From a virus (Duplodnaviria > Heunggongvirae > Uroviricota > Caudoviricetes): a stretch of DNA of 5,052 bases. A program made the position numbers. Location: IMG/VR virus record IMGVR_UViG_2700989368_000009. One strand, 5' to 3'. This document shows, in pieces, positions 1 to 5,052 of this stretch (position 1 is the stretch's first letter; each line of letters starts with the position of its first letter).

Positions 1-3000
1 TTTGGCTGTACCAGCCGGGGGCAGGCACACCGCGCCGGGCTGTGGCTGATTAAAACGGAACTGCTGGAGACGCAGACCGTGGATTTCAGCGTGGGTGCTG
101 AAGGGCTTCGTCATGTACCGGGCGATGTCATTGAAATCTGCGATGATGACTATGCCGGTATCCGCACCGGCGGGCGCGTGCTGGCGGTGAACAGCCAGAC
201 CCGGACGCTGACGCTCGACCGTGAAATCACGCTGCCATCCTCCGGCACCACGCTGATAAGCCTGGTTGACGGGCAGGGGAATCCGGTCAGCGTGGAGGTC
301 CAGTCCGTCACCGACGGCGTGAAGGTAAAAGTGAGCCGTGTTCCTGACGGTGTTGCTGAATACAGCGTGTGGGGGCTGAAGCTGCCGACGCTGCACCAGC
401 GATTGTTCCGCTGCGTGAGTATCCGTGAGAACGACGACGGCACGTATGCCATCACCGCCGTGCAGCATGTGCCGGAAAAAGAAGCCATCGTGGATAACGG
501 GGCGCACTTTGACGGCGACCAGAGCGGCACGGTGAATGGTGTCACGCCGCCAGCGGTGCAGCACCTGACTGCCGAAGTCACCGCAGACAGCGGGGAATAT
601 CAGGTGCTGGCGCGCTGGGACACGCCGAAGGTGGTGAAGGGCGTGAGCTTCCTGCTCCGTCTGACCGTAACAGCGGATGACGGCAGTGAGCGGCTGGTCA
701 GCACGGCCCGGACGACGGAAACCACTTACCGCTTCACACAACTGGCGCTGGGGAACTACAGGCTGACAGTCCGGGCAGTAAATGCGTGGGGGCAGCAGGG
801 CGATCCGGCGTCGGTATCGTTCCGGATTGCCGCACCGGCAGCGCTGTCGCGGATTGAGCTGACGCCGGGCTATTTTCAGATAACCGCCACGCCGCATCTT
901 GCGGTTTATGATCCGACGGTACAGTTTGAGTTCTGGTTCTCGGAAAAGCGGATTGCGGATATCAGGCAGGTTGAAACCACAGCACGCTATCTTGGCACGG
1001 CGCTGTACTGGATAGCCGCCAGTATCAATATCAAACCGGGCCATGATTATTACTTTTATATCCGACAGAGCTTGTGGAGGATACGCAGGCCATTGCCCGT
1101 TACGGTCGTAACGTCACGAAGATGGATGCTTTTGGCTGTACCAGCCGGGGGCAGGCACACCGCGCCGGGCTGTGGCTGATTAAAACAGAACTGCTGGAAA
1201 CGCAGACCGTGGACTTCAGCGTGGGCGCAGAAGGGCTTCGCCATGTGCCGGGCGATGTCATTGAAATCTGTGATGATGACTATGCGGGTATCAGCATCGG
1301 CGGGCGCGTGCTGGCGGTAAACAGCCAGACCCGGACGCTGACGCTCGACCGTGAAATCACGCTGCCATCCTCCGGTACCACGCTGATAAGCCTGGTTGAC
1401 GGAAGTGGTAATCCGGTCAGCGTGGAGGTTCAGTCCGTCACCGACGGCGTGAAGGTGAAAGTGAGCCGTGTTCCTGACGGCGTTGCTGAATACAGCGTGT
1501 GGGGGCTGAAGCTGCCGACGCTGCACCAGCGATTGTTCCGCTGCGTGAGTATCCGTGAGAACGACGACGGCACGTATGCCATCACTGCCGTGCAGCATGT
1601 ACCGGAGAAAGAAGCCATCGTGGATAACGGGGCGCACTTTGACGGCGACCAGAGCGGCACGGTGAATGGTGTCACGCCGCCAGCGGTGCAGCACCTGACT
1701 GCCGAAGTCACCGCAGACAGCGGGGAATATCAGGTGCTGGCGCGCTGGGACACGCCGAAGGTGGTGAAGGGGGTGAGCTTTATGCTTCGCCTGACCGTGG
1801 CAGCGGATGACGGCAGTGAGCGGCTGGTCAGCACGGCCCGGACGACGGAAACCACTTACCGCTTCACACAACTGGCGCTGGGGAACTACAGGCTGACAGT
1901 CCGGGCAGTAAATGCGTGGGGGCAGCAGGGCGATCCGGCGTCGGTATCGTTCCGGATTGCCGCACCGGCAGCGCTGTCGCGGATTGAGCTGACGCCGGGC
2001 TATTTTCAGATAACCGCCACGCCGCATCTTGCGGTTTATGATCCGACGGTACAGTTTGAGTTCTGGTTCTCGGAAAAGCGGATTGCGGATATCAGGCAGG
2101 TTGAAACCACAGCACGCTATCTTGGCACGGCGCTGTACTGGATAGCCGCCAGTATCAATATCAAACCGGGCCATGATTATTACTTTTATATCCGCAGTGT
2201 GAACACCGTTGGCAAATCGGCATTCGTGGAGGCTGTTGGTCAGCCGAGTGATGATGCATCCGGTTATCTGGATTTTTTCAAAGGCGAGATAGGGAAAACC
2301 CATCTGGCTCAGGAGCTGTGGACGCAGATTGATAACGGTCAGCTTGCGCCTGACCTGGCTGAAATCAGGACGTCCATTACGGATGTCAGCAATGAAATCA
2401 CGCAGACCGTCAATAAGAAACTGGAAGACCAGAGTGCGGCAATTCAGCAGATACAGAAGGTTCAGGTTGATACAAATAATAACCTGAACAGCATGTGGGC
2501 TGTGAAGCTGCAGCAGATGCAGGACGGACGCCTTTATATCGCGGGTATTGGTGCCGGTATTGAGAACACCCCTGACGGCATGCAGAGTCAGGTGCTGCTG
2601 GCGGCGGACAGGATTGCGATGGTTAATCCTGCGAATGGCAACACAAAACCGATGTTTGTTGGTCAGGGCGATCAGATATTCATGAACGACGTGTTCCTGA
2701 AACGCCTGACGGCCCCCACCATTACCAGCGGTGGAAATCCATCGGCATTTTCCCTGACTCCGGACGGAAAGCTGACCGCTAAAAATGCGGATATCAGTGG
2801 CAGTGTGAATGCGAACGCCGGGACGCTCAACAATGTCACGGTAAATGAAAACTGTACGATTAAGGGCATGCTGGAGGCGACTCAGGTCAGAGGTGACTTC
2901 GTTAAAGCTGTATCCAAATCATTTCCGAAACAGGCTGGTACGTGGGGTAACACGGAAACACCAAACGGGACGGTTACAGTCACCATATCAGGTGCTGGCG

Positions 3001-5052
3001 CGCTGGGACACGCCGAAGGTGGTGAAGGGGGTGAGCTTTATGCTTCGCCTGACCGTGGCAGCGGATGACGGCAGTGAGCGGCTGGTCAGCACGGCCCGGA
3101 CGACGGAAACCACATACCGCTTCACGCAACTGGCGCTGGGACGGTACACGCTGACAGTCCGGGCGGTAAATGCCTGGGGACAGCAGGGCGATCCGGCGTC
3201 GGTATCGTTCAGGATTGCCGCACCGGTAGCACCGTCGCGGATTGAGCTGACGCCGGGCTATTTTCAGATAACCGCAACGCCGCATCTTGCCGTTTATGAT
3301 TCGACGGTACAGTTTGAGTTCTGGTTCTCGGAAAAGCGGATTGCGGATATCAGGCAGGTTGAAACCACAGCCCGCTATCTTGGCACGGCGCTGTACTGGA
3401 TAGCCGCCAGTATCAATATCAAACCGGGCCATGATTATTACTTTTATATCCGCAGTGTGAACACCGTTGGCAAATCGGCATTCGTGGAGGCCGTCGGTCG
3501 GGCGAGCGATGATGCGGAAGGTTACCTGGATTTTTTCAAAGGCAAGATAACCGAATCCCATCTCGGTAAAGAGCTGCTGGAAAAAGTTGATCTGACGGAG
3601 GATAACGCCAGCAGACTGGATGAGTTTTCGAAAGAGTGGAAGGACGCTAACGATAAATGGAATGCGATGTGGGGCGTCAAAATTGAGCAGACCAAAGACG
3701 GCAAACATTATGTCGCGGGTATTGGCCTCAGCATGGAGGACACGGAGGAAGGCAAGCTGAGCCAGTTTCTGGTTGCCGCCAATCGTATCGCGTTTATTGA
3801 CCCGGCAAACGGGAATGAAACGCCGATGTTTGTGGCGCAGGGCAACCAGATATTCATGAACGACGTGTTCCTGAAGCGCCTGACAGCCCCCGCCATTACC
3901 AGCGGTGGCAGTCCTCCGGTATTTTCCCTGACATCAGACGGAAAGCTGACCGCTAAAAATGCGGATATCAGTGGTAGTGTGAATGCGAACTCAGGAACGC
4001 TCAACAATGTCACGATTAACCAGAACTGTACGATTAAGGGCATGCTGGAGGCGACCCAGGTCAGAGGGGATTTCGTTAAAGCTGTATCAAAAGCCTTCCC
4101 GAAAAAAGTCGGTACGTGGGGTAACACGGAAACACCAGACGGTACGGTTACAGTCACCATCAGCGATGATCATAACTTTGACCGCCAGATTATTATTCCG
4201 CCCATTATTTTTAACGGTATAGCGTATGACGATCCGGGGAGCGGAAATAACCCAGCCATTCCCGGTAGTTACAGTGCAGTTATTGATATGCCTAGTGGTG
4301 GTGGTAGCGTCACTCTGGAGTTTAAGATTTTCCAGAAAGGCAATCAGGGGGCAGGCAATATCACCGACTGTACGGTGATTGTGACCAAAAAAGCGGCTTC
4401 CGGCATCAGTATTCGTTGAAATATTTATAACCCCAATAAATGGCGTCAGGAATGACGCCTTTTTTATTGCAGAAAAGCGAGAGGTAATTATGCGTAAAGT
4501 TTGTGCAGCCATTTTGTCCGCAGCCATTTGCCTGGCCGTATCCGGTGCGCCTGCATGGGCGTCTGAACATCAGTCCACGCTGAGCGCGGGGTATCTTCAT
4601 GCCCGGACCAACGTTCCCGGCAGTGATGATCTGAACGGGATTAACGTGAAATACCGTTATGAGTTTACGGATACGCTGGGGCTGGTGACGTCATTCAGCT
4701 ATGCAGGAGACAAGAATCGCCAGCTTACCCGTTACAGCGATACCCGCTGGCATGAAGATTCCGTGCGTAACCGCTGGTTCAGCGTGATGGTGGGGCCGTC
4801 TGTGCGCGTGAATGAATGGTTCAGCGCGTATGCGATGGCGGGTATGGCTTACAGCCGTGTGTCGACTTTTTCCGGGGATTATATCCGCGTAACTGACAAT
4901 AAGGGGAAAACGCACGATGTGCTGACCGGAAGTGATGACGGTCGCCACAGCAACACGTCTCTGGCGCACTGACGGTTTCATCGTGGGTGTCGGTTATAAA
5001 TTCTGATTAGCCAGGTAACACAGTGTTATGACAGCCCGCCGGTTCAGGCGGG

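Follow-up and report, generated by a model that had tools for sequence, protein, structure and literature searches.

When two diverged versions of one sequence are present in the same sample, an assembly can end up with more copies than the organism has, and in eukaryote assemblies this is said to happen through diverged haplotypes being placed side by side, the false duplications reportedly described by Kelley and Salzberg in 2010 and by Ko and colleagues in 2022. The gene that concerns us here is a familiar one, J of phage lambda, whose product gpJ is the tail-tip attachment or host-specificity protein and which has lom as its neighbour, and disrupted versions of it do exist in finished genomes, for example in a decaying prophage of Escherichia coli SCEC020001 (NZ_CP032426.1). 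In the stretch of 5052 bp that we analysed (the window, by which we mean the whole of that stretch), J reads as three overlapping, non-identical partial copies in tandem, each join shifting the frame, and a sequence-only reading had regarded this as a possible frame-broken array of J alleles, while allowing for a decaying prophage remnant, for illegitimate recombination between prophages of one host or for an assembly artefact. Our answer is that the three-copy ‘array’ is almost certainly not a real locus but a scaffolding artefact, for which two ordinary prophage J genes supplied the pieces.

Gap characters in the public record

Looked up by exact match, the truncated Lom product identified the window as the entire contig CXOG01000264.1 of the draft assembly GCA_001252935.1, the proteins of which are named Shigella sonnei by the source. 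Compared base by base, the window and the public contig differ only at positions 1065, 2987 and 4254, the other 5049 bases being the same, and direct reading confirmed an N in the public record, against an A in the window, at all three. These single Ns coincide with what had been taken for join 1 (1065), join 2 (2987) and an apparent 78-nt deletion (4254). They are scaffold-gap placeholders, to which no strand applies, and the junctions at these positions were never sequenced. The placeholder at 4254 takes the place of a piece of the J C-terminal domain, at least 78 nt in length, that the closest relatives carry: relatives with flanks 100% identical around this position have 78 extra bases there, and the ‘junction’ as written in the window was found in no genome searched. 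CXOG01000264.1 is reported in two samples, the second of which is either an independent assembly or a duplicate deposit.

As far as the letters themselves go, the sequence-only reading described the repeats well. Positions 1-1064 do recur at 1131-2194, at an offset of 1130 and with 31 mismatches, all of which fall inside 1-670, and 671-1064 is identical to 1801-2194. The second repeat, at an offset of 1258, is equally present, with 1727 to about 2300 appearing again at 2985 to about 3560, a weaker, indel-containing similarity continuing to about 4160, and an identical portion at 1727-1855 and 2985-3113. Judged from these alignments, the similarity of the repeats is far above chance. The long open reading frames lie at 79-1179 (frame 1), 1074-3068 (frame 3) and 2845-4419 (frame 1), and the reported frame order of 1-3-1, with stops at 1179 and 3068, can indeed be read from the window, but it is meaningless: since the junction bases are N, the frame shifts and early stops that follow the joins carry no information. 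The statement that both joins run directly from J to J fails for the same two positions, 1065 and 2987, at which the public record has N, something that a reader of the window's letters had no means of seeing.

In content, the repeat region is gpJ throughout, and lom comes next, at 4490-4972. No genes other than J fragments and lom were called, their products match the Pfam families Ig_J, Phage_Tail_Tip, Ig_GpJ_C and Ail_Lom, and the window has 92-99% nucleotide identity to J as found in the prophages of thousands of E. coli genomes and in lambdoid phages. With such a gene content, programmed tail-fibre variation, whether by a DNA-invertase cassette or by a diversity-generating retroelement, does not fit the window, and the one inverted repeat within it is weak (26 nt, 73% complementary, with arms 3 kb apart).

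Blocks and alleles

The gap characters divide the window into blocks, all of them on the plus strand, which we describe in the J nucleotide coordinates of the reference gpJ of NZ_CP148268.1. Block A (window 1-1064) corresponds to J nt 1306-2369 and is assigned to an allele that we call X; it is gap-free and colinear with ordinary gpJ, and its product matches Ig_J. Block B (1066-2986) corresponds to J nt 1241-3161 and follows a chimeric path, from a second allele, Y, over 1066-1800 to allele X over 1801-2986; it too is gap-free, and it is colinear with gpJ in many complete E. coli genomes, the best of which reaches 98.8% identity. Block C1 (2988-4253), assigned to allele Y, covers J nt from about 1905 to 3253, is likewise gap-free and colinear with ordinary gpJ, and has its nearest relatives among the J proteins that are common in S. 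sonnei (98.6% amino-acid identity in the case of P0019). Block C2 comprises the J 3' end and lom; its part at 4255-4419 is the 3' end of gpJ, encoding the C-terminal receptor-binding domain and ending at the native stop, and it matches Ig_GpJ_C and is 99.4% identical to L005.

Wherever blocks A, B and C overlap, each variable site exists in two states only. In the three-way overlap the odd one out is A at 642-670 and C at 726-984, with B matching C first and A afterwards, and within block B the sequence is C-type at 1772-1800 and A-type from 1856 onward. An independent IMG/VR contig, L012, which has one colinear ordinary J, differs from block A at 3 of 1064 positions; against block B it has 3 mismatches in the 1186 positions of 1801-2986 and 36 in 1066-1800. 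By these variable sites, two ordinary J alleles account for all of the blocks, X comprising block A and block B from 1801 to 2986, and Y comprising block B from 1066 to 1800 and block C, and on that assignment 671-1064 and 1801-2194 are one stretch of genomic DNA written twice. The same sites demonstrate that the isolate carries at least two lambdoid J alleles. The switch between X and Y in block B falls somewhere inside 1801-1855, where both alleles are identical, and block B is either a natural mosaic, that is a third allele, or a path switch by the assembler.

What lies upstream of the window is particularly pertinent to block A. Two other draft contigs, L015 and L011, end in sequence that matches 1-879 at 100% identity, and in both the normal 5' half of J lies upstream of it. 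The sequence-only reading had proposed checking that the 66 nt before base 1 match 1065-1130; these nucleotides are present and are ordinary J, but they differ from 1066-1130 at two sites, and 1065 is N. The base that precedes window position 1 is C in allele X (as seen in L015) and T in allele Y (window position 1130), and the contig starts one base past a site at which X and Y differ. A search, in a collection without Shigella, for a complete E. coli genome having A, B and C as exact alleles, each in a prophage of its own, found none, the best matches being at 98.0-98.8%.

Origin of the apparent array

The history of the assembly is on record. Among the public assemblies made by the Sanger pipeline, Page et al. 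(2016, PMC5320598) include in their supplement ERP000568, ERS025876, ERR042775, CXOG01000001-CXOG01000382 and 6350_1#1, under Shigella sonnei. In this pipeline VelvetOptimiser and Velvet are followed by 16 rounds of SSPACE, going down to as few as 5 linking read pairs, N marks every scaffold join, and GapFiller is then run for 120 rounds (Page et al. 2016, PMC5320598). Its own authors describe SSPACE and GapFiller as greedy and state that this ‘can lead to false joins’, and in their table fragmentation is highest for S. sonnei, whose assemblies have on average 405 contigs (Page et al. 2016, PMC5320598). GapFiller as published requires an overlap of at least 10 nt for the closure of a gap.

The data show the N positions, the pipeline, the decomposition into two alleles and the absence of the joins elsewhere; which program made each link is an inference, but of the account as a whole we are highly confident. 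The starting point would be an S. sonnei isolate (ERR042775) with at least two lambdoid prophages, each having its own J allele, X or Y. Short reads would be unable to separate the two, and Velvet would have left partial contigs ending at X/Y differences. SSPACE would then have linked these partial contigs through ambiguous read pairs in the shared sequence, laying overlapping pieces in series, and GapFiller would have narrowed the gaps but left them open. For a gap estimated as non-positive, SSPACE would write one n. The single N seen in the record would accordingly correspond to a gap estimate of zero or less, and the product of these steps would be allele X from J nt 1306 to 2369, an N, allele Y and then X from 1241 to 3161, an N, allele Y from 1905 to 3253, an N, and finally the J 3' end with lom. 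Because the blocks cover overlapping parts of one gene, a scaffold of this kind looks like overlapping tandem copies, and because N is shown as A in the window, its gaps looked like direct junctions.

Several observations agree with such an origin. There is an N at each join, the assembly was made from short reads by paired-read scaffolding and gap filling, and the blocks are overlapping, colinear and paralogous. In addition, 4 of the 8 block ends (the contig start, the end of B, the end of C1 and the start of C2) directly adjoin a position that is polymorphic in a set of four reference alleles, in which polymorphic positions make up 5.9% of the total (binomial P = 7e-4, in a test devised post hoc with the data already seen). 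An assembler is expected to stop at sites where alleles differ, and recombination has no reason to choose such sites. Other drafts behave in the same way: in L030, J breaks off at nt 2271, and after NN (2547-2548) a diverged allele sets in at J nt ~1192, in L012 an N (12034) separates the start of lom from J nt 856, and L006 has two single Ns (3411 and 6838) in a chain of overlapping lom-stf alleles. From these examples, it seems that scaffolded drafts repeatedly give rise to false tandem copies of tail genes of the lambdoid type.

The joins were also sought elsewhere, with the proviso that the large collections lack complete Shigella genomes, which makes the absence of the joins weaker evidence than it appears. 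Among 5,426 complete E. coli genomes (none of them Shigella), join 1 was found in none at a coverage of at least 80%, and join 2 was found in none of the same 5,426, seven two-piece matches representing a J deletion variant. The exact junction strings were absent from IMG/VR (both joins), from the GTDB representative genomes (join 1) and from the JGI metagenomes (join 2), although these strings contain a made-up base, A for N, and exact-pattern searches are therefore moot. A contiguously sequenced novel junction was thus nowhere to be seen, the junction base being N and the window's version of it being absent from every collection searched. The seven genomes just mentioned, which reach 88% coverage of join 2, do not contain the join; what they have, E. 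coli SCEC020001 being one of the seven, is a J pseudogene annotated as frameshifted, with an internal deletion of ~785 nt, and this is genuine decay by internal deletion.

How, then, does a real locus fare as an explanation? The better of the two alternatives holds that the scaffold order is correct, with partial J alleles lying no more than one library insert length apart in a decayed, truly rearranged prophage and the Ns hiding short junctions. The scaffolder did require at least 5 linking read pairs for each join, which a real tandem would also yield, the seven E. coli pseudogenes are proof that J can be rearranged elsewhere, and the neighbouring lom has a deletion of 83 nt that is seemingly real. 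Against this, two alleles cover all of the sequence and 671-1064 and 1801-2194 are the same DNA, in L015 and L011 the sequence of block A is preceded by a normal J, the block ends sit where an assembler would stop and recombination would not, unrelated drafts share the N-gap pattern, and no finished genome that was searched has such an array. Taking both sides together, we regard the correctness of the scaffold order as very improbable, and we would be most surprised if the isolate truly had two or three diverged partial J alleles arranged head to tail within a few hundred bases of a decayed locus. That the joins arose by illegitimate recombination between prophages in one host and are real exactly as read in the window (tatatccg/acagag and caccat/atcagg, each with a 2-nt microhomology that exists in the window letters only), is more improbable still: it is contradicted by the record itself, which has N at each junction base, and a divergence of 3-20% is too great to have arisen in place in the clonal S. 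sonnei. The microhomologies CG, AT and G had also been considered as signs of recombination or of tiny-overlap merging, and they are void in either role, since an ‘A’ at an N position is no base at all.

The scaffolding explanation is the one that we retain. The artefact option, which the sequence-only reading had listed among others, is borne out by the single-N gaps, by a greedy scaffolder working with a gap filler and by the sufficiency of two alleles; the real frame-broken array is not, its ‘three copies’ amounting to two alleles, one of which is partly written twice.

The neighbouring lom and the known systems

Downstream of J, the shortened lom (4490-4972, plus strand), a gene for an outer-membrane protein of the Ail/Lom family with a match to Ail_Lom, is contiguous and free of N. 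It has lost 83 nt between direct CTGGCG repeats, of which the retained copy is at 4961-4966, and the resulting frameshift leads to a stop at 4972. The identical deletion junction is found in the IMG/VR contig L006 (IMGVR_UViG_2695420382_000009), which has a second, undeleted copy of lom as well, and it has no counterpart among the 5,426 complete E. coli genomes. This deletion is the sole anomaly in contiguous sequence and, as far as can be judged from the bases, may be real, and it is probably an ordinary pseudogenising deletion; a recurrent pipeline error is a possible alternative source of the junction. The contig ends, at 5052, inside a hairpin past lom (cccgcc ggttca ggcggg), and L006 runs on from there into a side tail fibre gene.

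The biological content of the window is, of course, ordinary: an S. sonnei isolate in which lom is a pseudogene and lambdoid J is present as at least two alleles. What deserves attention is how it came to look otherwise, since an N that has been turned into a normal base hides a scaffold gap, and overlapping contigs of paralogues then mimic an exotic, frame-broken gene array. In draft assemblies of strains with several prophages, the prophage tail genes appear to be a recurrent source of false tandem copies, with the three further IMG/VR contigs as examples, and the practical lesson is that in sequences offered for reading an N should stay an N.

Set beside the systems with which we began, the window resembles each of them in part. 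The J gene of E. coli SCEC020001 is, like the one that the window seemed to contain, of the lambdoid kind and broken up by a rearrangement within the gene, in a prophage that is decaying, and it is annotated as ‘host specificity protein J’, frameshifted; unlike the window, it has a contiguous deletion of ~785 nt in a complete genome, and neither a tandem restart nor gap characters. The prophage of this pseudogene (L004, 2100-4812) also has truncated terminase and L genes. With the J and lom region of phage lambda the window agrees in that every block is colinear with gpJ and an Ail_Lom gene comes next, and once the blocks are assigned to two alleles J is quite ordinary, whereas lom here has its frameshifting deletion of 83 nt. 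With the false duplications of eukaryote assemblies it shares overlapping, non-identical tandem copies, a gap placeholder at the join, blocks that end where the alleles differ and a greedy scaffolder; the difference is that the ‘haplotypes’ are here J genes from two prophages of a bacterium that is itself haploid, and that the gaps are single Ns, shown in the window as A.
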